In this document: positions 5,851 through 45,900 of the stretch, piece by piece | Numbering within the stretch: position 1 is the stretch's first letter | Layout: every line of letters begins with the position of its first letter | Assembly (NCBI GenBank): GCA_001724265.1 | Contig: MEDY01000009.1 | Location: 1 to 64,000 of the forward strand | DNA length: 64,000 nt | Direction of reading: 5' to 3' | Source: Rhizaria sp. SCN 62-66 | Taxonomy: Eukaryota | Translations under genes and position numbers: made by a program | The notes under the pieces: model-generated | The model's database searches: none | What the model was told of the DNA's origin: nothing | Seen by the model: only the letters and a program-made list of their open reading frames with translations

Positions 5851-6327
5851 ATTGAGAGTGAGTTGCGCAGAAAAGCGCTGACTTTGGTATGTAGAATGTC
5901 TCTAGTGCCTCTTCTAGCGTAGTTTCGTAGTAGTGCTGCTGCAAGTGATAGGAGCAAGGGAGGGAAGATCGCAAAGAAGATACATGAGCGACAAAGATAG
6001 ACTCACATAATGTGGAATAAATATAATACGAAAACATGTTCTTAAAATACAAATTCACTTGTGTCATTTGTGCTGACGGAGTACTGGACGTAGTCTATTC
6101 TAATTGATGTTCGTAGTTGTGAACCTTAACGGTGATCACGTCTCGCCAGTCGTTCGTCGAATTGTATGCACCCCGCATTAACACATCCGTCTGCAGAGAT
6201 TTTGGTGGTTGTAGACGGTTCAGCCGAATATTTAACTATATTCATCAAATATTGTGCCTAACAATTATGTTTACCCCTCTATAGACCTACTTTACCGAAG
6301 ACCGACACGTGAGCATCCTACGCCGCC

Positions 6328-8712
6328 ATGTTCTCCCGCGCTCGCAGCCGCGCCACGCGGTTGCTGTCGACCCCTGGTCCGCTGACCTCACGCCTGCACA
6401 CTACACTCACAAACCCTAACGCGGCCGCCGTCTTGCCGCGTATCTCCCGCGCCTTCAGCAACACAGCCGCGACGCAGCAGCCAGTCGCTAAAACGAAGCC
6501 CTTTTACATCACAACACCGATCTTCTACGTCAACGGCGCGCCGCACATCGGACACCTGTACACGGCGCTGCTGGGCGACGCAATGGCGCGCTGGCACCGC
6601 GCGTGCGGCCAGCCGACGCATCTTATGGGTGGCACCGACGAGCACGGCGGCAAGGTCGCCGAGGCGGCCGAGAAGGCGGGAGCGGCGTCGGTGCAGGCCT
6701 TCTGCGACACCGTCTCTGCCTCGTTCTCGGACACGTGGCCCGTGTTCGACGTCCGCATGGCGCACTACGCGCGGACAACGGATGCGGCGCACAAGGCGCA
6801 GGTGCAGCGCTTCTGGCGCGTGTTGGCCGACCGCGGGTTTATCTACAAGGGCGCGCACGAAGGCTGGTACTGCCGTAGCGACGAGACGTTCTACCCCGAG
6901 AACCAGGTCGTCACCGCCGACGACGGCCGCAAGCTGTCGCCGACGAACCACCCCGTAGAGTGGGTGTCGGAGCCCAACTATAAGTTCCGCCTCTCGGCCT
7001 TCGAGGCGCCGCTGCGCTCGTGGCTGGTCGCGAACCCGTCCGTGGTTCAGCCCGCCGCGCGGTACAACGAGGTGATGGCCTTCCTCGACACCGGGCTGGA
7101 GGACATCTCGGTCTCGCGGCTCGCCAGCAAGGTTGCCTGGGGCGTGCCCGTGCCCGGCGACGAGGAGCACACAGTCTACGTGTGGCTCGATGCGCTATCG
7201 GTCTACCTTTCGTCCGCGTAGCACTTGGACGCGCTGAGTGCCGCAGAACCCGCGAACAGCGCGAACAGCGATGTGTTCACCGACGTCGCAGCGATTGACG
7301 CGATGGCCGCTGCTGATGCCAACGCTGCGCTGTCAAAGAGCGTTATGGAGGCTGTCAACGCAAGCCTGCGCGCCAACAGCGTCACTGCCGCCGCCGCCGT
7401 TGTCATCGACGACGGTGCGAATGCTTCGAATGAAGCTGCGCCGGCGACGGCGACGGCGACGTGGCCCGCTGACATCCAGGTGGTGGGCAAAGACATCATC
7501 AAGTTCCATGCCATCTACTGGCCGGCATTCCTGCTCGCAGCGGGGCTGCCGCTGCCGCGGCGCATCGTCGCGCACTCCCACTGGACCAACGGCGGCGTCA
7601 AAATGTCCAAGTCGCTGGGCAACGTGCTCTCGCCCGCCGACATCGCGCACGACTTCCATGGCGACACCGACGCGGTTCGCTACGGGCTGCTGCGTCACGG
7701 CCCGCTGCGCACCGACGCGTCGTACGACCTGGCGGCGCTGCATGGCGACGTGGACGCGGATCTGGCCGACGCGCTGGGCAATCTCGCCCTGCGTGCCGTG
7801 GCCCCCGCGCTGCTGCCCGGCGGCGCGCTGCCCGACCCGCTCGCGCGCCATCGGCCCTACGCACCCGCCGACACGGCCACGACGGACGCGGTACCGCTGC
7901 CGGTGCCCGCGCCGCTGGACTTGTTACTCTTCGCGGCCCACCCGCAGCAGCACGCGCACGGACACGGCCACGGACACGGTCACAGTGGCCACAGCGACGC
8001 TGCGGCTGCGGCTGCTGCTGCTGAGTCTGCAGCTGTGGCTGCCGCTGCTGCTGAGGCGGAGGTTGGCACGAGCGTGCAGTACGACGCGCTGCCCGCGTCC
8101 GTGCTCGCGTCCTCTGCGTGGTTCACGCCAGAGACGGGTCTGGCGGCCGTGGGGTGCGATGCCGCGACGGTGCGCCTGATCGGCGAGATCAACACGCTCG
8201 TCGCGGGCGTCGCGCACGAGCTGGACCGCGGCAACACCGAGGGCGCGCTCCTGCGCATCGCGGCCGTGACCCGCGGCTGCAACGTGCTCATCTCGGACTG
8301 GAAGCCGTGGGAGCTCAAGGCGCGGCCCGAGGCGCGCGCGCAACTCGACTGGTATCTTTACTGCGCGATTGAGACCGTGCGTGTTGCCGCGCTGTGTCTA
8401 CAGCCCTTCACGCCCGCCATCGCGGCGCGCCTGCTCACCGGACTGGGCGTCAAGCCCGAGCACCGCAACCCCGTGCGTTTCGGCCGCTTCGGCTACCGGC
8501 CCGACGCCGCGCCCGCCTCGGTCAAGCTGGCGTTCGCCGAGAAGCCGTTCGAGAAGCTCGCCGCGCGCAAACGGGAGGGCGAGCTGTCGCCCGCGGAGGT
8601 CAAGGCGGCGCAGCACGCCGCCAAGAAGGCGCGCAAGGAGGAGGAGAAGAAGGAGAAGCAGGACAAGAAGGACGCGGGCGCCCAGCAGCAGCAAGGCGAG
8701 ATGAAGAATTAA
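6328..8712 (+). CDS. MARS2: Mitochondrial/bacterial-type methionyl-tRNA synthetase, ~794 aa, with an in-frame TAG at 7219-7221
   Basis: Arg/Ser-rich transit-peptide-like N-terminus. FYITTPIFYVNGAPHIGH, GTDEHG, WGVPVP and YVWLDAL lie before the TAG. GKDIIKFHAIYWPAFL, KMSKSLGN and the anticodon-binding region (KPWEL) follow it in the same frame. Ends in TAA. Confidence 0.93.
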
Positions 8713-15581: not shown

Positions 15582-17386
15582 ATGGAGTCTGACGGCACCA
15601 GCCAGCTGGCTCTCCGCGCACAGCTTGCACCCGACTTCCAGCAGACTCAACCGCGCGGCCTAGCCAAGTTCGTCTCCGACCCGGCGCCGCACATCCCCGT
15701 GGCGGGCAACAAGTTCTACGCCGACGGCGAAAGCGTTGCCCAGGCCACCTCGACGCAGCCGCGCGACGATTTCTCGCAGATGCCTCTCGATGAGGCCCGT
15801 TGGCGCGCGTCGTTCCAGCGCCAGCCCGGCGTGCAGATGGCCGCCCCGGGCTTCGTCGGCGCGCCGTTGCCTGCCGGCGACTACCGCCACGGTATCCGCA
15901 CGCATATGGGCAGCGACAAAGTCGGCGACGCGCTTAGCACTGCGTACACGTCGTCCCTGGGCGAGTACATCCATCAGCAGAACGAGGCCGTGTACGCGTC
16001 GTCGCGCTTCGAGCCGCTGGGCACCCACTACACGCGCGGCCACAAGCTCCCCGAGGGCTACTACAACGATCCCGCGTACCGCTTCGGCGTTAAGACCTCG
16101 TCCAGCGAGTCCGCCAAGACGGTTATGTACGCGCCACAGCCGCGCGCGGCGTCTTCCCGCGACGGGCCCGTCCCCCAGGGCACCGGCGTGGCCGCCGGGC
16201 TCGACGCCGAGGCCGCTAAGCTCGACCCGCAGTACGTCAGCGAGCGCGAGATCGCGCGCCAGACCACACGCCAGTACGTCTGGCCCGCCGGCTTGGACCC
16301 CACGCAGCACCGCTTCGGCCACGCCGCGCAGCATGCCGACCTGACGGCGAGCCACGGAGTGACCCCGTGCCTTAAGTTCGGCACGCCGGCGGCGCAGGAG
16401 CAGACGCGCATCGGCTCGATCCGGCCGCAGATGGTCGCTAACGTGTGGGGCAACGAGGTCGGCCGCCGGCGCCCGCTCTCGGATGCCATCGCCAAGCTGG
16501 GGCCTGACTTTGTGTTCGGCTCCCGCGGCGCGGCTGTGCAGGTGACCGCCAAGGACAGCATCTACGGCGGCTACACTGCGGATGAGCAGCGACCCGACCG
16601 CGACCTGGGCGCGTCAGTGCGCAAGAGCCAGCCGCTGTACAACGAGCCGCACTCGCTGACGCAGACCGTAGGCGGCGTCACCGTCGCCATGCCCTCTAAC
16701 CAGGTACGTAAGGAAGACTGAGTTAAAAATGATTAGATATATCGTTCTAAAGTGTTGAACTGCACATTACTTTATGCAGATGCGTATCATATTTACCTGA
16801 GATATGGTTCCAAGTCTTTTTGTTTTTGTCCATCTCATTACTAACATTGTTTTCTATTGCATGCTTTCTCTTTTGCTTTCTTCTATCTTAGGTCGCGTTT
16901 GGCGCGCCGACGATCCGGACGGATCGTTCCGAGCCCGTCAAGCGCTCTGTGGCGGACGACCGCAACTACGGCAACTAGCCCACTGCGGCGGATCTGCTCA
17001 TGCCTTCGGCCTACCTGCCCATGGGCGTCTCGCACAGCGACTTCGCGCGGCCGCGCCCCGCGTCGCAGGTGCGCGCGCTCATTAAAGCCGCCGCGCTGTT
17101 CCCCGCGGTTGTCAACAACGACGGCGCGTGGGCCGCGCTTACGGCACAGGTGGCGCCGCACTTCGCGCAGCCGGCGGGCGCGGTGGAGCCCGTCTTCTCG
17201 GTCGACGCCGCGCGCCAGGTCGCCTCGGCCATGACCAACCCCGCGCGTACGGCCCGCGTCTCGCCGGAGCAGGTGCTGCAGGTGCAGCGGCAGCCGCCCG
17301 CGCCCGAGACGGTGCCGCACAACGTGCTCAAGGAGCTCCCGCAGGAGGACAAGGTCCGCATCATTGCCTCGCGCTACCGCCGCTGA
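15582..17386 (+). CDS. EFHB: EFHB/CFAP21-like axonemal protein; exons 15582-16703 and 16892-17386; in-frame TAG at 16976-16978; ~538 aa
   Basis: Exon 1 has EAVYASSRFEPLG...LPEG...FGVKT...SAK. Exon 2 reads VAFGAPTIRTDRSEPVKRSVADDRNYGN*PTAADLLMPSAYLPMGVSHSDFARPR, matching the EFHB C-terminal motif FGxPTIRxD...NYG-[DE]-E...LLxP...DF. Ends in TGA. Confidence 0.8.
16704..16891 (+). other. Spliceosomal intron (188 nt, phase 0)
   Basis: Donor CAG|GTACGT, AT-rich body, TACTAAC branch-like site at 16839-16845, pyrimidine tract and TAG acceptor. Splicing joins in frame to the conserved motif. Confidence 0.88.
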
Positions 17387-20502: not shown

Positions 20503-21004
20503 GAAAGCACGTGCGCCCTCAGAGCAGAGGCTGCAAACCACAGCGAGGAGCTGTGTTGCACGCCAACGCATGTGAACGTAGATTACAAAGATAAAGAATA
20601 GATTGGGTTCGTGTGAACCTGTGAATACTAGACCAACAGAAAAAGAACAGAAATAAGCTACAAAATACACAGTCAAACTTAATATCGACACTTGCATCCA
20701 TACATGGTATCTATTGTTCGGCTTTATGCCATTTCAGACACCCGCGTGACTGAGACACGTTGCAGAAGATCGGACCAAAAGCAGACTACGAGGCACATTT
20801 TAGAAACCAAGATTTCGGGTCGTGGTCATCGTCAAATAAGTTTCGGCTGCTTTGCACGGAACGCAACTTATTGTTTTCAAACGGTTATTTCTTTTATTTT
20901 GTATAAACCCCTGTTTCATAGCGATTATCTCTCCGGAAGAATATCGCTCGTTGACTGCATAATCAAGCAGGCTGTCACTTGCTCCAGCCGCGCTCTCTTA
21001 CCCC

Positions 21005-24000
21005 ATGCAGCTATTCCGCGGCATCACTAAGGCACTTGCGGGCGTCGCCGATGCGGCTACAGGTCCCTCGAACAAGTACTCCGCCGTGCACGTCGCCCCG
21101 ACCCCGCTGCAGCACTTGCCCTTCGTGGTCGACCCCCTGCACCAGCCCTCGGCGGCAATATCGTCGACAGGCTCTCCCAGCACAGCAACCGTGACCGATG
21201 CGTCGGACCCTGGGGCAGGCAAAATCCGCTGGGTGTGTGACGACGAGGTGGCGAACTGCCAGACGTGTGCGGCTCCGTTCACGGCCTTTTTCTCGCGCCG
21301 CCACCACTGCCGCGCGTGTGGCCAGGTCGTGTGCAGCGCCTGCTCCCGCGGTCGCCGCGCGCTGCCGCACCTAACCCGCTCCCGCCGACGCGAGCGCGTG
21401 TGTATTGAGTGTCAATGCGAGATTGACTGCGTGCGCCGCGGCGTGGACATCGACGCCATTTTCCACTTCATCGACCGCTACGTGGCAGAGATGCGCGGGA
21501 TCTCATCCGCCATCGCGACGCCGCCCACGGCCGCGGACGCGGCGCGCGAGTCGGCCTGGCTGCGCGCTTTCTTCGCGACGCTGCACGCGAGCTTTGCTTC
21601 TGCGGCCGCGCTTTCGGCGCACGCCCCCGACGGCGACCTCATCATCACCGAGTGCGCCGAGCCCTCGCCCTCGCATACAGCCGCCGTCGCCGCAGACGGC
21701 GCCGCGTTCCGGGCGCTCGCCGCGCCGTCGCAGGTCCGCGCCGCAGTCGCGCTTGTTACCTGGGTGCTTGCCGGCGACGACGGGCGCGCGCAGGCCGCCG
21801 CCGCAGCGGCGCAGGCACCAGCGGCCACGGCCAGTGCCAGTGCCAATGCCAGTGCGACTGGTGTCACGTCGCCGTTCACTTCGATCGCACTATCCCAGTC
21901 GGCCAGCAACGTGGCAGCGCAGCCGTCGTCGTCTCCCAACGGCGGCAACGGCGGCTCTGCGCATAGTCATTTGCTGACAGTGCTTGAGGGCCGCGCGCTG
22001 CACCGGCTGCTGTCGTCCATCTCGTCAGTCTACGTCGCCGAAGCCGTGGCCGAGTGCGTGGCCGCCGCGGCGGAGGCTTCGCTCGCTGCAGTGGCCGCGC
22101 TGCCGCCGGCGCCCACGCCCGCGCCGGCTGCCGACGACGGCGAGAGCAAAACCAACGGTGGGGAGCTGGAGAGCGACGTGACCGGACTCGACGACATCAC
22201 CTTCTCCGAAGACACTAATACTACCGACAACGGCGACGCCACGGTGGTCTACTGCACATGCCCCGAGTCTGCCGCGGGCGAGAGCGACTCTATTGGCTCT
22301 GGCCCCGGCTCCGGCTCCGGGGTGGGCTCGTGCCCCGCGTGTCGCGCGCACACCGCGCTGCTGCGGCGTCTGCAGCGCACCATGTCGCGCACCGTCGTCG
22401 CGGCCTCGCACTGCCAGCGAGCGGCGCAGACGCTGCGCGCGGGCACCGCGGGCTTCATCGGGCCCGTCGTGCTCAGCAACGACGTCGGTGCGCTCGCCGC
22501 GCCCGCCGCCAACACCCTGTGGGGAGTGCTGCATCAGGCCCCGCAGACGCGCGCCGAGGCCGCCGCCGCCGTCGCCGCCTCGGCTATGACAACGGCTGCG
22601 CCTGCTACGGATAGCTCGCTGGGTGAGAGCTCAGCAACGTTGCCTTCTGCGAGTGCGGATAACGCCGCTGCCGCGTCTGTCGCGCCGTCGTTCCCGCTGC
22701 AGCGCCTGCTGGTTGTGACGCCGGGCCACAACCCGCTCATCGTGCTCACCGGCTTCGTGCGCCCCGTCGACTTCTGCGGCGTCTATCAGACGCTGCCCCA
22801 TAGTGACGAGGCGGGGGACCCCGGCTGCGACCGCGCCATGCGCCGGCGACTGGCGCTCGTGCTAGGCGCTGAAGCATTCGCCAAGGCCGGCGCAGTGTCA
22901 CACCAGACTGCGCCGCTGATGAGCGCCCTCAAGCCGCTGCTCTCAGCCGCGTTGTGTGGTGCTCAGACCGCGAACGCTGCCGGCGCCAACGCCTACTCAG
23001 CGGGCTCCTCCGCGACGTCGCCCGTGACGGCCTCCGGCAGCAACCTCGCCCCCGCGCAGCAGCAGCAAGAGTCCGTCATGGTCGACGCCGTCGCCGACAT
23101 CGCTAGCGGCAGCACAGCGCTGGCGGCGCTCCCACGCGCGCGCGTGACGCTGGCGAACCGCCACGCGTCGCTGCTGGCCAGTCTGAGCGGCGTGGCGATC
23201 CGGTTCATCACGCCGCAGACCGGGAGCCAGGCCGCGGGTGACGACTCGGCCTCGTCGCGGTCGACCGCAGGCAGCAGCATCGGCAGCATGCTCAGCGGCG
23301 GCGGCGGCAGCGCGGGCGCGCACAAGCACCACGCTGTCGCCGTCCCGCACCGCGGCGACAGCAGCAACAACGGCAGCAGCAGTGCAAACACCACAGTGAC
23401 CTCGTGGACCGCGCCCGCGCTTGCGCTCGCGGTGCCGCCCTCGGCTGCCGCGGCCGCCGCCTCCGCTGCGGCAGCCGCGGGGGCCGAGCACGTGCCCACA
23501 GTGCCGCTGCCGACCTCCGTCTCGCACGCGGTCACCGCGCCCGGTTCGAGCCACCCGGCCACCGCGAGCGCGCTGGACTCGCCCGCGCTGGCACTGGTGT
23601 CGTCGCCCTTCTCGGCCGTGCCCGCCACCGTGGGCTTCGTCCCCAGCTCTGCCGTCCCCGCCGCGGGCTACGGCAGCGCCGGCAGCGGGGGCGACGGCAG
23701 CGGCTCCGTGTCGGTGGCCGTCGACCCTTCGGCCGCGAGCAACAGCAGCGGCAGTGGTCTGGTTGCGCCGACGCCCACCGCGGGCGCCTCGGCCCGGCGT
23801 GCGTTCGGCGGCGGCCGCAGCAGCCTCTCGGCCTCGCGCCACGGCCACGGCAGCGACGGCGCGCGCTTCATGTCCCCGCCGCAGGCCGGGCTGCGCGCGT
23901 TGCAGACGTGTGGGCTGGCCGGCTCCGTCTTCGCTTGCGCGCTCGCCGTGCCCGTCGACGTCGCCGGCGGCGTCAAGAGGCTCGACCCGCCGTCGCCGCT

Positions 24001-27000
24001 GCCGCAGGGGCCGCCCGCCGCGCCGCAGCTCGCGCGCCTGCCCGCCGCGCTGCCCATCAACAGCGTGCGTGTGGCGTCGGCCCCAGCGCCCGCGCCCGCG
24101 CCTGTGTCGACAACGGCGGTCAACAGTGGCTCAGCTGTAGCTGGCAGCGCGGTCGAGAATGGCGCCAGACTGGCGTTGTCGACAACAGTGAGCACGAGTG
24201 CGAGCTCAAGCCAGACGAGCTTTGGAAGCGCCGCCTACGTCGCGGTCAACACCAACAGCGTGACCGTGTGCGGCCGCGCCGTGCCCGTGGCCCCGCCGTC
24301 GCTCGTCTGGGGCCCGCGCAGCAGCGCCACCGCGGCTGCGCCGGTTACTGTCAACGCCCACGCCGGCCCCGTCACGGGCCCCGCGCGTGCGTACTTTACG
24401 TCGGCGCCGACGGTGCTGTTCGATGGATACACCGCGCTGGCGCACCCTACGTGGCTGCCCGCGACGGCGTCGCCCGCAGCCGTGGCGGCGTGGGAGCCCG
24501 CCAACGCGGGGCCCGCGCGCGCGCTCTCGCAGTGGCGCCAGAACGCCACCGTCGCGGAGCGCTATTACGTCGTGCGCAACGGCGGCGCGCTCCCCAGACG
24601 CGGCGTGTCGGCTTCTGCGTCTAACGTTGTGTCGGTGTCGGTATCGGCGTCGGCTAACAGCGCAAAGGTTGCGGACGCGACCACGTTTGGCCTCGCGTCG
24701 CCGCTCGCGGCTGACGAGTCTGCTTCAGACAGCGCGGTCGCAGCATTGCCTGCTGCAGCTTTGAGTGCGGGCGCTATTGTCGCTGCTGGTGACCCTGCAA
24801 CGAAAGCGACCCGTGCAGGCTCAGCCACCGCTGCCGCTCTGCTCTCTGCACCGTTCCCCAACACGCCGTGGTGCAACAGCAACACCGGCACCAGCAGCGT
24901 GTGTTCGGTGGGGCGCGACCTCGTGCTCGCACTCGCTGGCGCGCTGCCTCCGTTGCGCCCGGGCTCCCATGTTCCCTTCGCGCACGTCGACCCCTACCAG
25001 GCTGCAGCCGCCATCGCCGTACATGCCCAGCAACAACAACAGCAGCTGGGCTCCGAGGCGCCGCAAGACCGCGACCGCACGGCCGCCGGCTCCGTGTCGT
25101 TCTACGGCGTTAGCTCCAGCGTCGCCGCTGGTGCCGCCGGCGACAGCGGCGCGCGGCCGCGTGGCGTGTTCGCGTACTCCGGCCCCGTCGCGTCAACCGT
25201 GGGCGCGCCGTACCCGCCGACCGCCGCGGCCGCCGCCGCGCTCGCGCTCGCCGCGCCGACCGCCGCCGACTGCGCGCCCGTGGCCGCCGCGCTCGCCGCG
25301 CGGGGCAACGCCGACGCTCAGGCCACAGCGGGCGTCGCGGCGGCCGGGCTCGCCGCCATGCCGCCCGCGCTCGCGTGGGTCGTACTCGCTGCGGCCATCG
25401 AGAACGCCGGCTCGAACGCTGCTCTTGGCGCGATGGCCGCGAGTGATGACGTGCAGTGTGTTCTCTGGTCCCCCGCGCTCTCGGCGGCCTCGCACTTCGC
25501 TCTGCGCGCGCTTGCCGCCTCGGCGCCCTCGTCTCCCGTTGCCTCAGGCACCGGCACGAACTCCACCGCAACGGCGCTCACGGCCAACGGCGGCGTGTCT
25601 GGGCTCTCGCTGGCGGTCGCCAGCGGCGGCTCCCTGCTTTCGCTGCCTCCGCCGCCGACGCCCGTGACACCCGGCAGCTTCGCGCTGTCCTCGGTCTCCG
25701 CCGCCGCCGGCGGCGGCGCGGGCCTGTCGTCGTCTGCACTCGCGCTGCCGCAGTCCTCCTCGGCGGCCTCGGCGTCCGCGACCGCACTGACGGCGGCGCC
25801 CAGCGCGGCGCTGCGCAGCGGCGTGGAGCACGTTGTGCTCGCGCTCTGCGAGTCGGGTGGCGTGCTCTCCTGGCTCGCGCGCGCCCGTGATCGCTGCGGC
25901 TGCCCCTGCGCCGTTGAGGCGCCCGACGCTGCGCTCTGCGCCTGTTGCGGCGGCGCCGCGGGTGCCGGGCCTTGTCTCTGCGGCTGCACCGGCCACGGCG
26001 AGGACTCCTGGGCCGCGGGGCACGCGGCAGCGGTGTCTGCAGCGGCGCTCGCGCGCAGGGCCGCGCAGGCGCCGACGATGTCCACGGCCAGCGCTGGCTC
26101 TCTCGCTGCCAACGCTCCAGAGCGCTCCACGGGCGCTGCGGTCGCGGCGTGGCAACGCATCTTCCCCATGGCGCAGTACACTGGCGGCAACAACGCGCAC
26201 TCAAACGCGTATCTACTGCCCCCGGCGCCCCAGCAGCAGCTCGGGGCGACTCGCGGCAGCATGCTCGCTGTGAGCAGCAGCAGTGCCGCGGCTGCGGACG
26301 CCGCCGGTGGCGACCCGATGACTCCGCCTCGCAAGGCCGGCCGCAGCGCTGTGCGTACTGCCGCGAACACAGCTTCTGCGGCAAACGCAGCGGACGTGGA
26401 TGCCAACGCCGCCGCCGCTTGGCTGTCCGCGCCGCCGTCGCTGCCGCCCGCGCCGTACCAGAAGACGCTGCTTTCGCTACTGTACACGCACCTGCACGCA
26501 CACACGAGCCGGCTGCGCCGCGCCTGCGCCGCGCTGGCGCTGCTCGCGCGCGACGCCGCCACCACGGTCTCGGCCGCGGACCCCGCACACTGCGCGCTGC
26601 TGCACGCGCTCTGGCGCGGCTCGCTCGCGTGGACCTGCGTCGCGCCGGCGCAGGCCCTCGCCGGCGCCGCGCCCGCGCAGTCGGCCGGTTCCCTAAGTGG
26701 CGCCGTGCTGGCCGCGCGGAGGCTCGAGGCGCTGGCACCTGCGCTGGCCGTGGCGCCCGCGCTGCCGCGCGACGAGCGGTGGAAGCTTGTCGGCTTCCAG
26801 TCGGACACGCCGCTGACGGACTTCCGCGGTATGGGCCTGCTGTCGCTGCGCGCGATGGTCTACATCTGCACGCACCACCCGCGCCTCGCCGTTGCGCTCG
26901 CCGCGCTGCAGCAGCCTCCGCGCGCGCCCACGACGGTGTCCGCCGACGCCGAATCTGCGCCGGCAGACGACGCGGTGAGCGTGGCTGGCCTAGTCGCCGC

Positions 27001-28222
27001 CGTCGCGCAGCAGAGAGCGCTTGCCGCGCCCATGACCAGTGAGGCCGGTGACGACGTGGATGAAACTACCGGTGCTGACGGGTCTAGCAGCGTCGGCTCC
27101 CCTGCCTCCGCACCCGCCGCGAGCAGCAAGACTGGCTTTAACGGCGCGCGCGAGTATCCTTACGCGACGGCCGTTATCAACGTCGTCGCCGCGCTCGCCC
27201 GCATGCTCCCGCTGCCGCGCTTCACGCCCTCAGCCGGCTCCGGCGCCGCGGCCGCCGCCGACACGCTTGGCGTCCGCCGCTCGCGCGCGCCCGGCCGTGG
27301 CGGTAGCATGTGCGGGGGCGGCGCGGGCGAGTACACCGAGATCATGCTCGAGTCGCTGATGCCCGGCTCGGCGCCGTGGCTCGGCGTGGCTGACCCCGCC
27401 CACTGCGAGCCCGCGCTGCCGGAGCCCTTCGCGCCCACCGCCGCACAGGCCGCCTCCTAGGCCGCCGCGGCCGGTGGCGGCGGCGGCGGGCTGTTCGCGG
27501 AGTCGGCCGACGCGGACGCCGTGCCGGTCGGCGCGGCCGCCGTGCGCGCGACGGCCCACGCCGTGGCCGACGGCGGCGCCGCCACAGACGCCGTGCTTGA
27601 CGCCGCCTTCGCGCACTCGCCGCCGGACCTGGTGCAGTACCCGCTGTTCCGCCTCATGACGCTGCCGCGCGCGGCCCCGCGGCGCGCCCCCGCGCCGGGC
27701 ACCACGCGGCTTGTGCCGCACGTCGCGCTCTCGCCCTCGATGGTCTTCTTCGAGGTCGTCACGCAGACCGTCGCTCTCACCGACGTCATCTTCGCGCGCG
27801 TCGGCGCGGGCTACTTCACTTTCCCGCAGGTGCTCGCGGCCGCCGTCACGCGCTGCAGGCTCGCGCTTGCGCGCGCGCCCGTGACGCTCGAGGCTTTCGC
27901 CGAGATCCTGTGGGCGGACGAGGCGCCCTGGCTGCGCGCCGCCGCCGAGGTCGCAGTTTGCCCGCTGCAGAACGCGCTGTGCGTGGACTATGGCGCTGCT
28001 GCTGGCAGTGGTGGCGCCGGCAGTGGCGCGGGGGCGCCGCAGGCGGCCGTGGACGCGGTTGGCGCGTTGGCCAAGGCGCTAGCGCTGGCGGCGCCGCCCG
28101 CGGCGGAGGACTTTGCGTTCTTCCTCGAGACGGACGGGCTGGTGCAAGCGGTGGCGCCCCGGCCCGCAGTGCCGGCTTTCGTGGTGCCCACGGTTTTTGA
28201 TCTCGGCGACAGGCTGGTGTGA
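21005..28222 (+). CDS. FYVE zinc finger + ELMO/CED-12 domain protein, ~2405 aa, with an in-frame TAG at 27458-27460
   Basis: [18 protein letters not shown]....[49 protein letters not shown] and [11 protein letters not shown] before the TAG, then [30 protein letters not shown] after it in the same frame. Ends in TGA 28220-28222. Confidence 0.85.
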
Positions 28223-29045: not shown

Positions 29046-30282
<1,237 letters not shown>

Positions 30283-33946: not shown

Positions 33947-36900
33947 ATGTTCACATGTGCAGCTACAACTTTTGCGCGCGTTGTGGGGACGCTTTCTCTC
34001 TGTATTGCTATGATCCAGGTACTAGTACTACCGATGCTGAACGCAATGGTGATTCAGTACCTCCCAACTTCACCTCGCAACTATTTCCGTCTCTCAATCG
34101 CAGAGGTTGACCGCTGGCAGCTTCCAACTTCGTTGCTCACTGTGTTAGTTACGCCGTATTCCAGCGGGAGATCATTCGAATTTGACACGGACCGCAGCTG
34201 CGTGCTGCAAAACTCTGACGCACAGGTCGTACACTCATCACCCAATTCGATCACATTCGGCTTTCCGGGGAAGGATCCGTTTCAAATTCTTCCCACGGGG
34301 AAGGCCAGCTTTGAGCTTCGTTGCAGCTTTGCCGGACGACAATTCGAGGGGCTAAATGACGGTGTTGTAACTGCGCAAATCACAGCACTACCCTCACTGT
34401 AGGAAACCGTCTCGTTCAGCACAGTGCGAGTCACGTCAAACATCATCACATTGCCAGCCTACACCAAGACTGGACTCTACGGCGTAATGCCAGCGTGGAC
34501 AAGCTTGAGTTCGTTCTCAATTGATTTACGCATGGCGTTAAACTTCCAAAGCTCCACGCCACTTCCGAATGACTTCATAGAACTTAGCTTTCCCAGTCTA
34601 CTGAATGCAGAGTTGCTCACGTCGTGTTGGTATGCACCAGAAATGGTGCGTACACCGCGCTACCGTACCAAGTTCTTACGCGTACCGGGCGAAAATAAGA
34701 TTCGTCTCTACTTAAACCCAATGGACTCCGATCTTGAGGCGCTTGTTCGTCCGCCGTTGCGACCAGACTCGGACATCAACGGCCACCGCAGCATTATCTG
34801 CTCTGGCTTCACGGGTGGACCCGAACAGAACACAGGCTCAGTAGACTATTACCCAATTGTGAATTATTACGGAGGCAAAAATAATGTAAACCTTGCAGGT
34901 TATTACCTCCCGACACGCTTGTATTCGCTACCATGGTTCCCTCCTACGGTCTCCAGTGAAGTCAGGTCTGCCCCACTCGGCGCAGTGCACACTGTTGTTT
35001 TCACATTTATCTGCGCACAAGCCATGCTGCAACCTATAATGCGCGTTCAAACGCCGCATATCGAGCACACCGGGCTTGCATTCCTTGGATCACCAGTGTG
35101 TACTGCGGCGTTAGACCAAAGTGATGCTCCAATATCAAACATCATTACTTCTTCATATGCATTCACCGTTGACTTGCACACTGTTGCCATTGCAGGCAAC
35201 CCAACAGCGTCGCTCGTTGTTACGTGCAAGTTTCGCTTTACTGGCGCCTTTGGCTTCACACCAAAGACACTGTCATTTGACTTAAACGCGCGCCTATCCC
35301 CACAGAACGGCGGCGACAACGATGTTGTGATATCGGTCCCACTAAGCGTTACATCGCGAGCTGAGATCGGCGCAACGCCTATTGCAGCAACTCTTTCTCC
35401 TGCTCCCCTATTTGATGTGCCTGTGCAGCTCACGGTTACTGCTTCAATCAAGCGCACGTACCTTATCGACGCGCTGCCCGTGCTCGCGCTATCTGTCTCA
35501 CCTTCACGGCTGATGCCATTGAATGCAATTTGCACGCTTAAGGTGAACGACATTGTGCTTATTACATCCGAAGAGTTGAAGCTTGACGCATATGCATTGT
35601 TTGGCATGAAGCCTTCGCTGATAGGACAGGTTCCCACAGCAGGCGAGTACGTTTCCCTTGAGATACAGTGCAGTGCCGTGACGATTCCGTCAACAGTGAA
35701 CGAACACGTAATGCCCGTGGTCACCCTGCGCGTGCTGCCAGCAATAACGTTCTCCTCTGGAGTTGATTTGCAGGCTTACGAAGTCGAACGCACACTAGCT
35801 GTTATCCCATACCCGACAGTTTCAGCCTCTCCATCTCTGCTGTCAACACGAGTTTTCGCAGACAAGAATGGCGACTTTATTTTTAACGTTGAGATATCAA
35901 TTCCAGCGCTTACGACGGATTTGTACATTGTTGACATTGTTACAATTACAGTCGTGCCACAAAGCACGCGCGACTACGGCACATTTAAACGCGTAGACGT
36001 TCAAAACCCCGTGCGTATGTGCGTAGTCATGAGCACAGCAACAGGCGAGAGGTTTCGCACAGCAACACCTTTAGGGTCATCTTATGTGCTCAGCGAGCCT
36101 GTTCCAACTGCAATCACGTTTGCACTTGCCGACGACATCCCCAAAGGAACTGCGCTCACTGTGCTGTGCCCTCAGTCGCTTGAGAAAACTCGCGACAACA
36201 CGGCTGATGTCACGCGCGGCACGTTGCGCACAAACATTGTGACGTTTGCCGTGACGCGGTCAACAACGAGCATGCTAATATACACATCGTTTAAGGCAGC
36301 AGAGCCCCAACCAGCAAGCAATTTTGCGTTGATCAACACAATCCAGTTCTTGCATGATCAAGTTGGATATAGCAATGTGTTCAATGCTCTTTATCACAAC
36401 CCGTCTCAGATTAACGCACAACTTGCACCGTTGCAGCCGCTAAGCGTGCGAGTGTCTGCAACCGTTTCGTGGTTCGACCAATATAATTCAGTGCCGGTCT
36501 GCAGTCTGTTGATTAACTCTCACGAAATTGTATCCGTCAGTGTCTCGATTTTGTCTGACAAATCACTGCAAATTTTTGGAATTAACAATGCAGCGCCGCA
36601 TGTAGAAGAGGTTTTACAATACCAATGGTACGACATTTACACTGGATGCGCCATCCGCGTTCGATGCTCTGGCATTGTACTTCTTACAGCTCCAAGTCAG
36701 ATTCCGCAGTTCTCACTTGATACATTACTCCCTGCCGTAAGCACCGGGGTGTTCGAGAAAATAACTGTTGTGCGCAGCATTACCACGGCACCCCGCATGT
36801 ATATGAACATTGCCTCGCTGGCTTTACGTAAGGTAACTCTCTCAACAGTATTGCCGTTTCCAGCACTGTTTGGGTTGCACCTAGGCTCGCTTGGCATTGA

Positions 36901-39900
36901 ACTAATCAATGCGGGCACCGCACCCTTTTTATCGTGTAAGTACAACACATTCGCAGGCACCACAAGCACGAACGTTGCTGTACTTCCGATTTTAGGTCCG
37001 CTTATTACAATACCACTGGCTGCATTTATTGAGGCTGCGTCTGACTTGTACAAGGATGCTGCGATTGTGCTTCATTGCACATTATCTAATAATGTAAATA
37101 TTTCTGCAACGGGCATTGTCACCTTAAGAAGTTTCGTAAGCCCAACAACCGCAGTGACCTCTACATTCAAAAGTATTGACGGGCCCACCGGTGCGCGTAA
37201 TGTTTACATCCTGCGTGACTCTAACTACGCCGGCACAGGAGAGCCGCTACGCGCAATCATGACATCTCTTCCCACTTTTTCAGGCAGCAATGGCGCATTT
37301 ACTACGACAATTCTTCTTGACATTGGACTTCCACTCTCGCTAATGTCTCCAACAGGCTCATCCTGTACTGTGACCATCTATGATGCTGACTATAATGTTG
37401 TAGCTGAACACAGCCAGACTAACGCTGTGACGTCTATAAATTATGCGAACATCACGTTTCCAGGAGCGGTTATTGGCGGCCATGTTGCATTAACTTTCAC
37501 CGTACACCTATTCAATGGTGATTATGAGTCCCGCACAACTTCAGCCACTATTACCGCATCATTGTCCTACACCTACGTCACTGGAGGCGCAACTACAGTT
37601 GCACACATGCCCGTAGTGTCAAGAGTTATACCTGCCCGCGACACCATCCCTGCACAGAGCACGGGCTGTCCCGCAAGATTGGCGCCACAACTGCCGTACG
37701 TTAAACGCACCTCAGTTACAGACTTTGTGATCAAGCCACCTGTCTTGGCAGCCTTATCTGGCGTTGCAGTCGGAGATACTGGCGTAACAACGCTGTCAAA
37801 CACAGATCAAGTTGAGATTGATGTGGTTTCTAACTCTGTGACACTCATTCTTTGCATGTATGCAGGTAATGATACGTCATACAGCATTGCAAGTTTCGGT
37901 AGCGTCTCGGGCACTGTCACCAATGTTAAGCTCACAATTGGAGCTTTGATTCCACAAGAAAACTCGCTCACAGTCCGCTGCACAGCAACTGGAACTTCGA
38001 GTACTATGAGCCATGGCATCGCACCGCTGTCTATGAAGATCGGTCGCTATGTCGCATCTTCTTTTATGTACAATCTTGCTAGCTATACTAACGGATGCTA
38101 CAAAAACACCCTTGACATCGGTGCATACGATGCAAACAGGCCCTTTAAGGCCCGCATTCGCATTCTACCCGTCGGCTCCTCGCTTGAGATTAATGCCGAT
38201 TTACCAGTAAAATTGTTTCAAACCTCTGCTGATTACTGGCAGTTCTACTTTGCGGAGGGCGTTTACGCCACTTCTTTTAGCTTGTGCACGATGACTCAAG
38301 AAGATCCGTATGAAGTGCTCTTTGAATACCCCTCATGCTCAGCCCAAGTTTTTCCTGACAACAAAACCCTTCGCATTAGCACTGGCACCCCGTCAATAAG
38401 TCGGCCGTACACACCATATGTGCGCTGGACCACTAAAGTGACGCTTACGCTTACGACAGTGTCACCATCTCCCGCCGCACGCCCGTTTGTAACAGCACCT
38501 TCTATTGGGTTTGCATCCAATGAAGGCAACGTTTTCCTTAACGCCAACGTCGACTTGTTGTCGGTAGACCTTCTAATTGATACTAGTGTGTCAATTTGGA
38601 CTTACAGCAACACAGTAAACACAATTACTGGCTTTAAAGTAACAACATTGCTTGATGCTGTGGCGCTACCTGCTGCGTCCCAAACTCGCCAGTACACAGC
38701 TAGATACACGTTTCCCGCAAATCGCGAGTTGCAGTCCTACATTGCAAGTCGCTGCAGTTTGTCAGTGAATGCAGTAGACTACACTTTTGTCTCTGTTCCC
38801 GCTCTGCAGTTTACGTTTGCGTTGCAGGACGTGGTTACGGTTGACTTTGAACTGTTATCTGATGCTGGGCCGACAACAGGCAGCATCACGATTGTATTAA
38901 CTTGTGACACAGGTATGGCACTACCAGTTGCAATTGGCTCTGCAGTAGTCGATGTTTCTATTCTTGCTAAGCCTACTGTTGTCGACGGCGATAGCGTCAC
39001 GCTACAGGGTCAAGGGGTTACCAGCACTACTGCTCTACCAACGCAGCTGTCTGTGACAAATCCACAACTCTCGGATCCCGGCAACTCGCGAAACTCCAAT
39101 TTCTCGTTTGTCATCGACATGACAGGACGCAATGGCATTAGCATCGACGATGTATTAATGCTAACGGTAGACGCACACATTAGCAGCCTCTTTACAGTTC
39201 TTGTAACAGCAAGTTCAGGCACGCTCAGCACATCGGATACAGCGACTGGTAGCCAGATGCCTTTCTCCGCCGCGGTTAAGTTTAACACAGCACATCATTT
39301 CTCCACAGGAACTCTGCTTCTAGTTACCGGCGTTAGGGTCGCAAATCCTCCTGTCAGTGCGGCAAGCTTTGTCATCACTGCTGGTCTTTTCGACCGCAAT
39401 GGGGATGTTATTGCAACCTCCACACAGCTTACGTATAATCTCATGCATGCGACCTTAACACCATCTGCAAGTATTTCTCAGTACGTTGCTCATAACAGTG
39501 GAACATTGTCTGTCACTACATTAGTTCACTCCAACTTATACAGTGGGGACCAGCTGCAGTTTTTAATGCACTCACCCGCACTTATGCAGGCGCCGAGCAC
39601 ATGCTCCATTGAGCTCAACGGCACCACACTGGCGAGCACCATCGCCATTATTGCCACTGGTCCAATGAACAACGACCTCTTCTACCCCCGTCTACTCATC
39701 GCCGTTACAATGCAAAGCGATTACGGCGTTGCATCAACACCGGCATTGCACTTCGTTCTAATTATCTGCAACAGCTTTATTGCTCCACCAGAGTACAACG
39801 GGAGCGGACAAAACCTGGCACGTCTCGTAAATGGAGCGGGCGTTGAGCTGGCCACCACTACGTTTGATTACGGCAGCCCGATATCTCCAATGGTTTCGGA

Positions 39901-42900
39901 AAGTATTGTAAAAAGTGGAAGTAGTGTCCACGGAGCATCTACAGGCGTGCTTACCGCTGTTAGTATTGCGTCATCAACTTTTTTTAGGAACAGTGACACC
40001 GTTTCTCTTGGTCCCACATCATTGTTTACGGACACTGTTGGCGACTGTGCATGCGTCCCCGTTGGAGCTACTGTTATCACCCCAGTTACCGGCCAGACCC
40101 TCGAGTGGACTTTGTCTGGAATCACCGCCACCGGCGCTACCTTTAGCATCTTCTGTCCTTGCGCAAAAAACCCGGTTGTCGATGCATTTGCAACGGTAAC
40201 AGTGGTAGTAAAAACATTATATTCCGGTGTTATTGCACGTAGTGACGGAGTTTATGCGATTGCCCCTTCAAGTCTCGGTGCGTTTATTGTACAAAACACA
40301 CTTTCAACAACCATCATAGGACAGCAAAGTAGTATCGAGTTTATGTTTGTTGACAGCACAACCTATGCAGACTCAGACGCTACATTTGAGATGCCCAGCT
40401 TACACACTGACATGGAACCACTTACAGACTTCGAGTGTGAGTTTACTGGCACAGATTTGATCGGCCGCGCAATTACGCATGCTCTAATGGCGACATTGAC
40501 AACTGCGACAGGTTTTAACGCGACTATTCCACGCCTGACTCCAAGCACTGTACGAACAACATTTAGCTTGCAAGGAGCGACTATCACTTGCTCCCAGTTA
40601 CAGAATCCACCACTGACAACGCCTGGCGCAAACTTTACAGTGCTCCTTCTTGACCGAGACTCACATGACGCGATACTAACGGGCTTCACGACACTGCCAC
40701 CGATGACGTTGCCACCGCCACTTCTCAGTACAGTTAATGGCGAGCTTCACTTTGTAAACGCAATCGAGGGTGTAACAAGTGGCTTCTCAATTAGTTTAGT
40801 CCTCGACCCGTTTTCATTTCCCGCATTGACTACGGAAAGCGTTTACGTCGGATCTATCCCATTACCCGCGGATTTCGAGCCAATCACAAATCCATCTCAA
40901 TGCGATGCTGTATTATCTCCTCTAAGTGGCTTCACACTCACTCAACCAACATCGTCGATTGACTCCGTCACACGCATGCTCACCTTTTCGTTTAACGCAT
41001 ACGCCTTGATGGACACCACAAATTCCCGACCTATGGTCGTAATAAGCTGTGTGGCAGCGGTGATGGTTCCACTTATTATTACATCGTTGTCTTTTTCGGT
41101 TAGCTTGGTCGTAACGCCTGACATCCCAGCAACTCCGGCATGGGTCTTATCAGGAGGCGTGACAACTGGCCCCACTCTTGCTGTGAAACCAACGCCAACC
41201 CTAGTACCATCCTATTTGTGGCGCAACGATAGCGGACGCACCGCGTCATTTGCATTGCAATTCCAAGCTTTACCCATTGCGTTAGAGCAAGGCGCATCAG
41301 TACTTATTTCATCAGCCGTCTTGTTTGCATCCCCAGATTTTAACTGTAACGCGTCATCCCATGGTATTGCGCTTGCGCCGTTATCAGTCGCGACAACTAG
41401 TGATCCCACATCGGACCTAACGACTGCAGCAAATGCAGTCTCAACTATCACACTGGGGTCAACACCGAGCACCACGGTCCCCGTCGGCACAGTGCTAACG
41501 GTGACATGTTCGGGGACTGTAAATCCGTCAGCAGTGACTTTTACAGGCGCATATACACACGTTGTTGTGCTTAATGCACCAAACAATGTTGCTCTGACGC
41601 ATGATACCATCGCTAATTTTGGCCAGATTGCACCAGTTACATTGACAGGCTCACTGACGTTTTCACCAGCGCTTCTTAATATGCGCACCTTGTTTACTCT
41701 AAAAGCGCTGATTGACACTATCTTACAGCCAGGAGATACGCTGTCCATGTCCCTCCCTGCCTTTGGGAGCGTGTCAGCCGCGGATGCCACTGACTGCACA
41801 ATTGCGTATAACAACGGTGCCGCCGCACCAGCGACCGTAGGTGCTGCCAGCAATGTTGGCACTCTTGTTTTAACAGTTGCGCTGAACGCCGCACCGTCAG
41901 ACGTTGACCACAACGAGATTGTACTCTCATGTAATCTTACATCACCGCGTATAATGCCTCTGCCTAGCACAGCCACTGTGACAATATCCAACGTCTACGA
42001 GCAAATTGTGTCATCAGCTGACTTGGACTATGTTTTGACCGCACAGCCTATTCTTGTTGTTGCAACACCAGCATTACCAATTCTCAATGTGGAAAACATC
42101 TTAACACTACTTTTGGAGATCGAATTCTTCGATGGTGATCAGATCATTCTGCATTCGAATGAGGCCACGCTGACCAGCTGCTATTCAATGACGTCAGGCG
42201 TGACTGTGACTATGACAGGATCAATTGCAGCGCTGGCGTTGGCTCAGCCAATTAATAGCATTCATAGTGTCACAATTGTATGTCAGCCTGTTACGATCGC
42301 TCCTCCCATTGTGCCCAATGCAAATGCATCAGTAACTGTATCTCTTTTAGATTACAACGACAGTCAGGTGTCAACAGGCGCGGGGAGCTTTGCTGTCCAA
42401 GCGGAGTACACCGGTGTCTTTATTGACGCCGCTATCAGTTCGCCATTTGTGTATGACACAAGTCACGTGTCTCTAACAATTACAGGCAGCGACTTTGCGC
42501 TACTCGCAGGCAACGAGTTTCGCATTGCAGGCTTTCCGGCCGGGATGACGCTTAATGCTGGTGCCAGTTGCACCCTTAGTCCTGGATCTTTGACTATGCT
42601 GGCAACGCTTAGTGCGGGCACCCTTTCAATGGCGCTGCCAGATCCGACAGGCACAGTCTCCACAGTCACGTCCGGCAGCGTATTAGAATGCTCGAGTTTT
42701 ACTAACCCATCAGGTCCACTGCCAGCATCATCACTTCGTTTTACCGCAGTAAGCGGCGCTATCACAATGCTAACAGCTGGTGCTTTACTACCTGCTATAG
42801 AGTCCGGTGACATTGCCGAGTTCGCGGAACTTACATTTGCAGACTCTCGTACTTATGCAAATACGACCATGTCCATCAACTTTACCATGCCGTCGTCGTT

Positions 42901-45900
42901 GCTTATGTCCACTGACATTGAGGTTTACGTTCTACTACCAGAAGTCTACTCGTTTAGTGCGCCTTCTATTGATTGCACTGCAACAGCAGACAACATGACC
43001 GTGTTTGGCTCGACAACCCAGCCTGCTTTAGCGCCTGCACCCTTCCGCGTTGGATTTAAGCCCATTGCCCCGTTACCCACTATTACAGCAGCGCCATTCC
43101 GCGTTGTGATTTCATGCACAGCCATGAACAACGCGCGAGGAGTTTCCGCGCTGCCAAGCAAGGCCCGCATATCTTTTGTCAACACTCTCAGTGGATTTGA
43201 CCCAACGCTTTATAATGCGACATTTGGCTTTATTCCTTTGCCTTCCGTGATATCGCGTCTAATGGGTCAACACGCTGCAACGCTTACCCTTGCAAACGCG
43301 TTACCGGGAGCTGTGACCTCTGTAATCTTAAGTCTCAATGTGATCGCTGATGAAATTTCAGTGTGGCCCGGCGAGAGCATTGTCTTTGGCTTACCAGCGG
43401 AGTTTAAAGTCGCAGCCGGCGGCATGACTGAGTGCATTATGAAACACAATGGCGCCATCGTCAACGGTACAACCCAAGTTTCCAAGGCGTATAGGCGTAT
43501 TCAGTTTATGTTGCAATCACCAGCTGCGTATACATCGCCAGCGGATGAATCTGTCATCACATGTGACCATATCCTGAACCCGCCCTCTGAGACAGCTGCT
43601 GTGAGCGATCTTACCGCCGCGGTTATGACTTCGGAGGCCAATCTGATCGCAGTGACCTCCACAATGCCTCTTGCTGCTGTGAAGCCAACAGCACTTGGCC
43701 TTGATGGCAATGACATGGTGGCTGTGCGCAATGTGAATGGTCAGTATCAGTATAATGTGCGTGTAAGCCCCATGAATTGGAACTTTACAGCTGGCATGGC
43801 ACTGCGATTTGATTGGCCAACAAGCGAAGTCGTGTTAACTGCTGGCGCAAACTGCCGTGTTGTTTTTGGGAGCACGACACCGTATACGATGTCTGCAACG
43901 ACTTCTATTGACATTGCACATACGCTAGTTTTAGTGATACTGCGAGGCTCTTACGTGCAAGTACCTGCAGCCGCCAGTGATGTCATGAATGTGTGGTGTA
44001 CACCAGTTTCTGCCGTTACTGGAAACATTGGTGTCAAGATTTACGATGGTGTTACAGTACAAGGAATTGATCCTGCATCTGGCATAATCTACGCACAGTC
44101 GGTGTCAGCCGTAAAAGGAAGTCTGAGTCCTCCATCAAGTTTGATAAATCCGTGGAGTGCGTTGTTAGATTGGACTGCAAAGCTTGTCACCACACCTGTG
44201 GTTATATTTGACTCAATCGGCAATTTGATCATGAACTTTTACAGTGATACAACGGTATCACCCGGCACTGCTGTAACATTGTTTGCGCCACTGCAGGAGA
44301 AGTTGGCCAATAACGCAACATTGGAATGTCTTGTTAATGGCATGCTTGTTGAAACCCGTCGCAACACGGCTGCCACAAGCGAGTTTACTTTAGTGCTCGG
44401 TGAAGGGCTGTTTTACATTCCGAATCAAGCGATGAACATTTCGTGCACAGTAAACACTGAGATCATTATGCTGATCCCGATCCGCATAACCGACTCAGTG
44501 GGCGTTACGGTGCCAATCACGCCAAATCCTGCAGTTGCAGAGCTAGCGCAAATGGGCGAGTACGAGCTTTTGTTCTACTACAACACAACAACGCTACGTA
44601 TGCCATCGCCTATGGTGATTACTGTGCAGGCATTGAACACAATCCTGTCACCAGGAGACTATATGTTGATCAATTTACCCGACGGCTTTGACACTAGCGA
44701 AAATACGGTTTGTTCTGTCCTGATGACATATGAGTACGCTGCAGGCGCAGTAACAAACCCTGAGAGTTTCACAACGCAGCTCCAAGGCGCCACTCTCAAA
44801 CTTATCTTTGAGGGCGATAGCAACTCGTTTAACGCCACGAGCTTTGTTGGCGCCCCAGTAATTACGCGGCAGTGGGAGGCAACAGGTACACTGAGACCTG
44901 CTTATGGCGGCGCACTTGCGGCAGACGGTTACATAGGGTCGACGTGGTTTGCTGGCGATGTTGTCAGCACTGAGATCGCTTGTACCAATATCATGCGCAC
45001 GTCTTTAGCGCGGGTTCCATACAGTGACAGCCCAACACAGCAGGCTATTGGTGCCTATGTCTCAAACACTCTTGTTGCGCGCGGTAGCGCTGACGCAGTG
45101 ACGATGAATGTGCCACCAATTGCCGCTATACTTTCCGCTACAACATCCAGCTTTATTCTTTCCGGGACTACTACCCCTGTCACCGCATATAGCAGCATGG
45201 GTCTCAGCGTATTTATGCAGAACATCACCGTTTCTCCGATTGCCGGTGACGTGCTTCACTTTATGCCTTCAACTCCAGCATCAGGCACTCCGTGGGACTT
45301 GTCAAGCCCGGCTTTACAATGCACTGTGCGCGTCGATCTAGATCTTGTGCAAAATCTCCCTATAGCTGCATTTGCGATCTTTGATAGTACAACTGGCGGC
45401 ATTGCTGTGACGATTCCAGCCGGTGTTTCAGCGACTCCGTCAATACCGCCGGGGCAAGTCGACATGACATTGCTCTGTGCGCCAGTGCACGCACCTTCGG
45501 TGGCTGTGGCGGCAACCGTTATCGGGACTTCGTCGTGGCAGCTTGTTGACTCACTCAACAGACTTGTTGTGTCGAGCGCTGCAAATAGTGCAGTCGAGCC
45601 CGAGATTGTCGTGGCATCGTTGACAGACACGATTGGAGTACTTGTTTTTCCTTTTACAGCAAGCCCCATAGCCCGCCTATATACTATGTTTACTTTGAAC
45701 GCATCACAGAGTGAAGAGGCCACGTTACACCTCCCCATAAGCGTAGCTTTCCCGATAACGTTACCTGCACAGGGTTTTGAATGTTCTATTGATGAGGCTC
45801 CTCCGACTACTGCAACGATAGCTGGGACAATGCTACAATTGACTTTTAACAGTGTGCTGGTAGCTGGTGTTAATCACACTGTACGCTGCGGCGAATTCGC

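Follow-up and report, generated by a model that had tools for sequence, protein, structure and literature searches.

In-frame TAG codons in four genes of an uncultured eukaryote point to UAG as a probable sense codon

How could a methionyl-tRNA synthetase (MetRS) be made as one chain when a TAG stands in frame between its HIGH and KMSKS motifs? The question is raised by a gene for a mitochondrial-type MetRS in a 64,000-nucleotide stretch of DNA (the window; positions 1 to 64,000 of contig MEDY01000009.1, assembly GCA_001724265.1, Rhizaria sp. SCN 62-66), which is a contig of an uncultured eukaryote. An earlier note on this DNA had placed an in-frame TAG between the two motifs and had argued that the codon is translated. 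The placement is borne out by the alignments, and translation of the codon is supported both by the conservation of sequence across the TAG and by the coding score of its frame. The present analysis takes the matter a step further, in that TAGs in sense frame appear, from the sequence of the other genes, to characterize the organism rather than MetRS alone. In our opinion UAG probably (about 0.78) encodes an amino acid in the nuclear genes of this eukaryote, in which UAA and UGA are the stops.

The two stop-to-stop open reading frames (ORFs) of the MetRS gene, 6313-7221 and 7222-8712, are in the same frame. Read with TAG as X, starting with the ATG (6328) and ending with the TAA (8710), they give a protein of 794 residues, which matches the Pfam family PF09334 (tRNA-synt_1g) with an E-value of 7.6e-86 and aligns with solved MetRS structures in three colinear stretches spanning residues 48-754 (best E 5.5e-109). 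Readthrough of the TAG is required for HIGH, KMSKS, the Rossmann fold and the anticodon-binding domain to come to lie in a single chain. In family, motifs and domain order the predicted enzyme resembles class I MetRS of the mitochondrial or bacterial type (PDB 3kfl, 4eg1, 2x1l), from which it differs by the in-frame TAG and by two insertions, one Ala-rich and one His/Gly/Ala-rich. Its N-terminal presequence is basic and contains no acidic residues, and many of its homologues are named mitochondrial MetRS.

Right behind the codons for YVWLDALS, the sequence at 7201-7227 reads GTC TAC CTT TCG TCC GCG TAG CAC TTG, and the VYLSSA stretch that precedes the TAG is identical in the two closest homologues (P0004 and P0005). 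At the column of the TAG no homologue lacks a residue; in the closest ones it is R, L or K. The Ala-rich insertion that begins directly 3' of the TAG comprises 79 codons, compared with ~28 residues at this place in the closest homologues. By a codon log-odds score built from 11,399 codons of other window genes, this insertion (7222-7458) reaches +0.80 bits per codon in the frame of the TAG and -0.88 and -1.15 out of frame. The second insertion, also specific to the lineage, is found at ~7950-8060, before the anticodon-binding domain, and consists of HAHGHGHGHGHSGHS followed by poly-Ala.

A gene-by-gene survey of the window yielded 14 genes, four of which carry an in-frame TAG (at 7219, 16976, 27458 and 34400; Table 1), and in three of the four (MetRS, EFHB and the ELMO-domain gene) homology spans the TAG. 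Thus, exon 1 of EFHB aligns with residues 42-319 of Chlamydomonas FAP21 and exon 2 with residues 330-413, the TAG being placed within the aligned block of exon 2, with FAP21 and CFAP21 aligned on either side of the TAG. In the FYVE/ELMO-domain gene, the Pfam ELMO match 5' of the TAG covers model positions 3-117 of 176, and the remainder of the domain follows 3' of the TAG in an alignment with ELMO-domain proteins taken from a representative search, where D461, F474, V477 and L489 are invariant. The part of the domain 3' of the TAG, compared by itself with Pfam, gave no match, nor did the ELMO region when compared with PDB. The orthologue of a relative (P0246) is continuous across the TAG site and has its C-terminal end in common with the window protein. 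This orthologue was called as 632 residues on a JGI contig of 7,699 nt, and its start is internal, corresponding to about residue 1,813 of the window protein; the contig is long enough for more, and the protein may be truncated, either where the contig ends or at a stop within its own frame.

The fourth gene encodes a giant repetitive surface protein. A signal-peptide-like start and one Cys-containing module are encoded 5' of its TAG, and 4,220 codons, including those of a C-terminal membrane anchor, lie 3' of it. The codon score is equally weak on the two sides (+0.095 and +0.089), and the sense reading of this TAG is by frame only. The protein is rich in Thr, Ser and Val and repetitive, with recurring Cys-containing modules and a Cys-rich region, and the GC content at third codon positions (GC3) of its gene is 0.485, against 0.80-0.93 in every neighbouring gene. 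A comparison of two N-terminal parts of the protein with Pfam returned nothing significant (only DUF3100, at an E-value of 0.0094, below its cutoff), and no homologue of the gene was found.

Table 1. Coordinates of the MetRS gene, of the other genes with an in-frame TAG and of the introns of the window
Feature	Position	Strand	Details and basis
Mitochondrial-type methionyl-tRNA synthetase	6328..8712	+	One exon; ends with TAA at 8710-8712; PF09334, PDB, homologues
HIGH motif, residues 73-76, 5' of TAG	6544..6555	+	H73, G75, H76 invariant
In-frame TAG, MetRS codon 298	7219..7221	+	Sequence, ORFs, alignment
Ala-rich insertion, 79 codons, directly 3' of TAG	7222..7458	+	Alignment and codon score
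KMSKS motif, residues 425-429, 3' of TAG	7600..7614	+	K425, S427, K428, S429 invariant
EFHB/CFAP21/FAP21, flagellar microtubule inner protein	15582..17386	+	Exon 1 15582-16703; exon 2 16892-17386, TGA end
EFHB intron, GTACGT..TTAG	16704-16891	+	Colinearity with FAP21
In-frame TAG, EFHB exon 2	16976..16978	+	Aligned with invariant Glu of NYG[ND]E
FYVE/ELMO-domain gene, ~2,406 codons, TGA end	21002..28222	+	Domain match, alignment
In-frame TAG inside ELMO domain region	27458..27460	+	N-terminal half of domain 5', C-terminal half 3'
Repetitive surface protein gene, 4,372 codons, TGA end	33947..47065	+	Frame, sequence features
In-frame TAG, codon 152 of giant gene	34400..34402	+	Frame, codon score
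Spliceosomal introns (five)	16704-16891, 19629-19823, 29793-29892 (-), 29412-29609 (-), 31829-31978		

The usage of the three stop codons across the window is one-sided. A count of 17,490 codons found 3 TAG, 0 TAA and 0 TGA in frame, the fourth TAG (16976) falling within the first 29 codons of EFHB exon 2, which the count omitted. The 14 genes terminate in TAA (8) or TGA (6), and none in TAG; were TAG to make up 20-30% of stops, the chance of 0 in 14 would be 0.044-0.007. For the MetRS, GMPPB and ELMO genes, the called ends are backed by the lengths or C-termini of homologues. UAG is rare as a codon, at ~0.2 per 1,000 codons compared with 32 per 1,000 for GAG. It should be noted that a screen for further sense-strand TAGs by GC3 only was swamped by the antisense frames of GC-rich genes, and gene-by-gene models were used.

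The MetRS TAG recurs in DNA from independent studies. A contig of 1,344 bases from run X3, which belongs to another study, covers 6007-7350 with 0 differences, and a contig of 1,041 bases from run X4, which belongs to a third, covers 6368-7408 with 3 differences (6414, 6681 and 7173), each in the third position of a codon, and has the TAG intact. These two contigs rule out an error of one assembly as the origin of the TAG. The exact 297-residue N-terminal half that ends at the TAG (P0407) is found on 6 contigs in JGI, Logan and ENA, and the C-terminal half (P0003) on 4 contigs. Among the best 120 MetRS matches listed, none except the window's own half exceeds 73% identity. A metagenome scan with MetRS gave, among the matches listed, two distant loci, L001 (43%) and L002 (40% identity); the JGI contig carrying P0407 was not among the matches listed. 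No fragment of a close relative that bridges the TAG site was found in a search for short MetRS fragments, and run X6 has no listed piece at this TAG.

The polyA RNA run X8 presents a different picture. Its MetRS contigs, 6636-7196 and 8128-8411, carry 45 and 26 differences from the window (~8%), and its contigs listed on four other window genes carry 0-1 differences. Because its MetRS is ~8% divergent, its other genes have 0-1 differences and the DNA runs X3 and X4 are without the variant letters, X8 probably also holds a second, related organism. A paralogue in this genome was considered as the source of the ~92%-identical MetRS and rejected, the X3 and X4 DNA being free of the variant letters at the listed positions.

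As to the amino acid for which UAG would stand, the informative codon is that of EFHB. In each of the 5 printed alignments, its TAG stands opposite the Glu of NYG[ND]E. These alignments represent 4 distinct proteins: FAP21 (6u42), CFAP21A (8g3d and 8g2z), an EF-hand protein (8snb) and EFHB (8i7r). The first base of this codon, T in the window, differs between populations: a change of T to G at 16976, which makes the codon GAG, is present in X4 (4.61 of 4.61) and in X8 (4.7 of 4.7) and absent from X3 (0 of 6.55). X4, with GAG at this position, still has the TAG in MetRS. Because a silent difference between GAG and UAG is the simplest reading of 16976, glutamate is, by a modest preference, the meaning that the sequences suggest for UAG. 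The MetRS column is uninformative in this respect, since it is occupied by G in 212 of 238 homologues (E in 1 of 238).

In the mechanism that we propose, UAG would be decoded as an amino acid, most likely glutamate, and UAA and UGA would end translation. The MetRS mRNA would then be translated through codon 298 into a 794-residue enzyme possessing HIGH, KMSKS and the anticodon-binding domain. The decoding may be due to a tRNA-Glu with anticodon CUA, one change away from CUC, together with a weakened recognition of UAG by eRF1. The rarity of UAG and its variation with GAG between populations at one site suggest that the reassignment is young or weakly used.

Three other explanations have to be weighed, of which one would take the TAG out of the message, either because it is spliced out with an intron of an unusual kind, short, rich in GC and in frame, or because the RNA is edited (A-to-I, for instance, which turns UAG into UGG). 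GT..AG pairs that keep the frame do exist. The 21-nt pair at 7201-7221 was rejected by the earlier note, and rightly so: its removal would delete the invariant Tyr293 together with VYLSSA, and 21 nt is indeed far shorter than the five introns of the window, which measure 100-198 nt. Excision of a 42-nt MetRS candidate would likewise delete invariant residues. Beyond these, 7212-7379 and 7218-7379 span the MetRS TAG, and their removal would leave a protein of homologue-like length; further candidates are 27386-27460 in the ELMO-domain gene and 34364-34402 and 34367-34402 in the giant gene. The search for RNA contigs of the TAG-bearing strain over any of the four TAGs found none, which also leaves room for this explanation. 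However, the candidates have a GC content of 0.62-0.81 and lack a pyrimidine tract, whereas the five real introns have a GC content of 0.31-0.54, pyrimidine-rich ends, YAG at the 3' end and, at the 5' end, GTACGT (three), GTCCGT (one) or GTACAT (one). The MetRS segment 7222-7379 scores +0.85 bits per codon in frame and -0.88 and -1.14 in the other two frames, and the ELMO segment 27386-27457 scores +0.88 in frame; undisputed exons score +0.70 to +0.78, and the real introns at most +0.14 in the best of any frame. Since the in-frame scores match those of exons, and the real introns score far lower and differ in GC content and borders, the sequence beside the MetRS and ELMO TAGs is coding, not intronic. 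In EFHB, the codon at 16976 belongs to an exon colinear with FAP21, and an X8 polyA-library contig of the GAG strain (16939-17265) runs through it without a break. A-to-I editing of premature UAG to UGG does occur in some filamentous fungi, but at 16976 it would place Trp at an invariant Glu. We regard removal of the TAGs from the RNA as very unlikely.

The TAGs could also be what the standard code makes of them. If they were real nonsense mutations, the affected copies would be pseudogenes or null alleles of genes that are dispensable or covered by intact paralogues. The GAG at 16976 in another population is what one expects of a recent G-to-T nonsense allele, and the copy number of MetRS is known for the 64-kb window only. 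Against this, as many as 4 of 14 genes are affected, in every case by TAG and never by a frameshift, TAA or TGA, and the coding scores 3' of the TAGs are undiminished. Moreover, the MetRS TAG is common to the contigs of three studies and to the 6 contigs on record, so that a nonsense mutation would have had to reach fixation in all the populations observed, the changes in X4 within MetRS 6368-7408 are confined to third positions, and the X8 variant of MetRS is not a paralogue in this genome; nonsense mutation is, in our view, a highly improbable account. Alternatively, particular genes might have leaky stops, read through by near-cognate tRNAs, whether by programme or by accident, often enough to supply the full-length protein, with TAG still ending other genes. 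The great rarity of UAG in frame (4 in ~17,500 codons) would agree with leakiness, as would the fact that the columns at three of the four sites are variable or of low complexity, and the 14 terminators are a small sample. Yet not one of these terminators is TAG, and the sites have no context in common: the codons that follow the four TAGs differ (CAC, CCC, GCC and GAA), and folding 3' of three of the sites is no different from that of shuffled sequences (z of -1.0, -1.8 and +1.4). An essential single enzyme, the mitochondrial MetRS, would in addition hang on an inefficient readthrough. Leaky stops under the standard code thus appear unlikely.

Several observations weigh against a sense reading of UAG, or against glutamate as its meaning. 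The sample is 64 kb, with only four TAG codons and 14 terminators. A tRNA scan of the window found 0 tRNA genes, hence none with a CUA anticodon there, and the eRF1 gene is not in the window. No RNA contig across 7219 was found; the X8 polyA contig 6636-7196 ends before the site. Not all differences between strains are silent, as the MetRS tail of X4 has two first-position changes (8620 and 8644). The assignment of glutamate has one informative site only, both runs with GAG at that site (X4 and X8) come from one study, and the difference between GAG and TAG at this site would be explained just as well by a nonsense allele, the flagellar gene being dispensable. At the other three TAGs the columns are variable or of low complexity; in the ELMO domain, the TAG is aligned with a G amid low-complexity sequence.

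The stretch was recovered in bioreactor, wastewater and microbial-fuel-cell metagenome runs. Its genes lie on both strands, with a coding GC3 of ~0.85, and the intergenic DNA is AT-rich. The nearest proteins come from metagenome contigs and are 84% (GMPPB, P0124), 64% (MetRS, P0004) and 56% (ELMO, P0246) identical to those of the window; identity to homologues of named organisms is 42-56% at most. The top named matches belong to oomycetes and fungi for MetRS (42-53%) and to chytrids and plants for GMPPB (51-56%), and a search with GMPPB in the collections genome_contigs and viral_contigs found no relative. Among the introns, 19629-19823 is demonstrated by a contig of run X6 that carries the GT..AG joint, and 31829-31978 joins the ORFs 30559-31836 and 31894-33033 into a single gene. 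EFHB and Cfap43 are flagellar genes of the window. A protein of 1,332 residues encoded on the minus strand at 55601-59599 is of the Frizzled/Smoothened type, having an Fz cysteine-rich domain and a seven-helix region (PF01392 and PF01534); such a receptor is unusual for an unplaced protist.

The nuclear code is rarely changed, and changes that leave UAG and UAA with different meanings are even less common. Glutamate is the meaning of UAR in peritrich ciliates (NCBI table 30). In Blastocrithidia, according to the available part of PMC12153298, UAR is glutamate and UGA tryptophan, and the reassignment is linked to AT-richness. In these organisms, as proposed here, a former stop is read as Glu through cognate tRNAs; they differ from the window in that the reassignment extends to UAA as well as UAG and in their AT-rich genomes, whereas the change proposed for the window touches UAG only, in strongly GC-rich coding sequence.

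Reassignment of UAG only, with another meaning, is described for nuclear genes of the rhizarian exLh (UAG=Leu; 384 UAG in 71 transcripts) and of Iotanema spirale (UAG=Gln) in the portion of PMC5304391 that was available. In-frame UAG in conserved genes, UAA kept as a stop and a predicted tRNA with anticodon CUA are features that these two share with the system proposed here. In exLh, however, UAG is common and means Leu, whereas the window has 4 in ~17,500 codons and one informative site that points to Glu. The window organism differs from both, as far as the same portion of PMC5304391 goes, in also keeping UGA as a stop (6 of 14 genes) and in its GC-rich contig, for which the best homologues from named organisms reach 50-56% identity only. 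The available text of PMC11687900 adds phyllopharyngean ciliates (UAG=Leu or Gln), Scotinosphaera (UAG=Ser), Protocruzia (UAG=Gln) and Oligohymenophorea sp. PL0344 (UAA=Lys, UAG=Glu). Reassignment of UAG alone and the origin of the sequences from metagenomes of eukaryotes are points of likeness with cases in that text, and PL0344 shares UAG=Glu, although its UAA means Lys, whereas UAA ends 8 of 14 genes in the window. With its coding GC3 of ~0.85, its long genes and its spliceosomal introns (100-198 nt), the window contig is not ciliate-like. A search of the literature, supplementary files excluded, found no code in which UAG means Glu and translation ends at both UAA and UGA, nor a case among wastewater protists. 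It is conceivable, though on balance still doubtful, that the window represents an undescribed nuclear code, caught early, which reads UAG as Glu and stops at UAA and UGA; its bearer would be a GC-rich eukaryote of wastewater and bioreactors, uncultured and without a sequenced relative close to it.

Some consequences follow for annotation as well as for biology. Standard gene callers split genes at the TAG, so that the proteome of this organism is currently mis-annotated; a public protein collection holds MetRS as the halves P0407 and P0003 and the ELMO-domain protein as P0244 and P0245. If the proposed reading is true, the code would belong to an organism that recurs across wastewater and bioreactor metagenomes of several studies. 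The known cases of reassignment of UAG only have Leu, Gln or Ser, to the extent that the available parts of PMC5304391 and PMC11687900 report them, and Glu would be new, if true. The GC-rich coding sequence sets the case apart from AT-rich Blastocrithidia, as characterized in the accessible part of PMC12153298. If true, the organism would be a natural system for stop-codon capture in a genome without AT-richness, and one in which a rare UAG that varies between populations permits a test of whether such a change spreads by codon capture or by way of an intermediate with ambiguous decoding.

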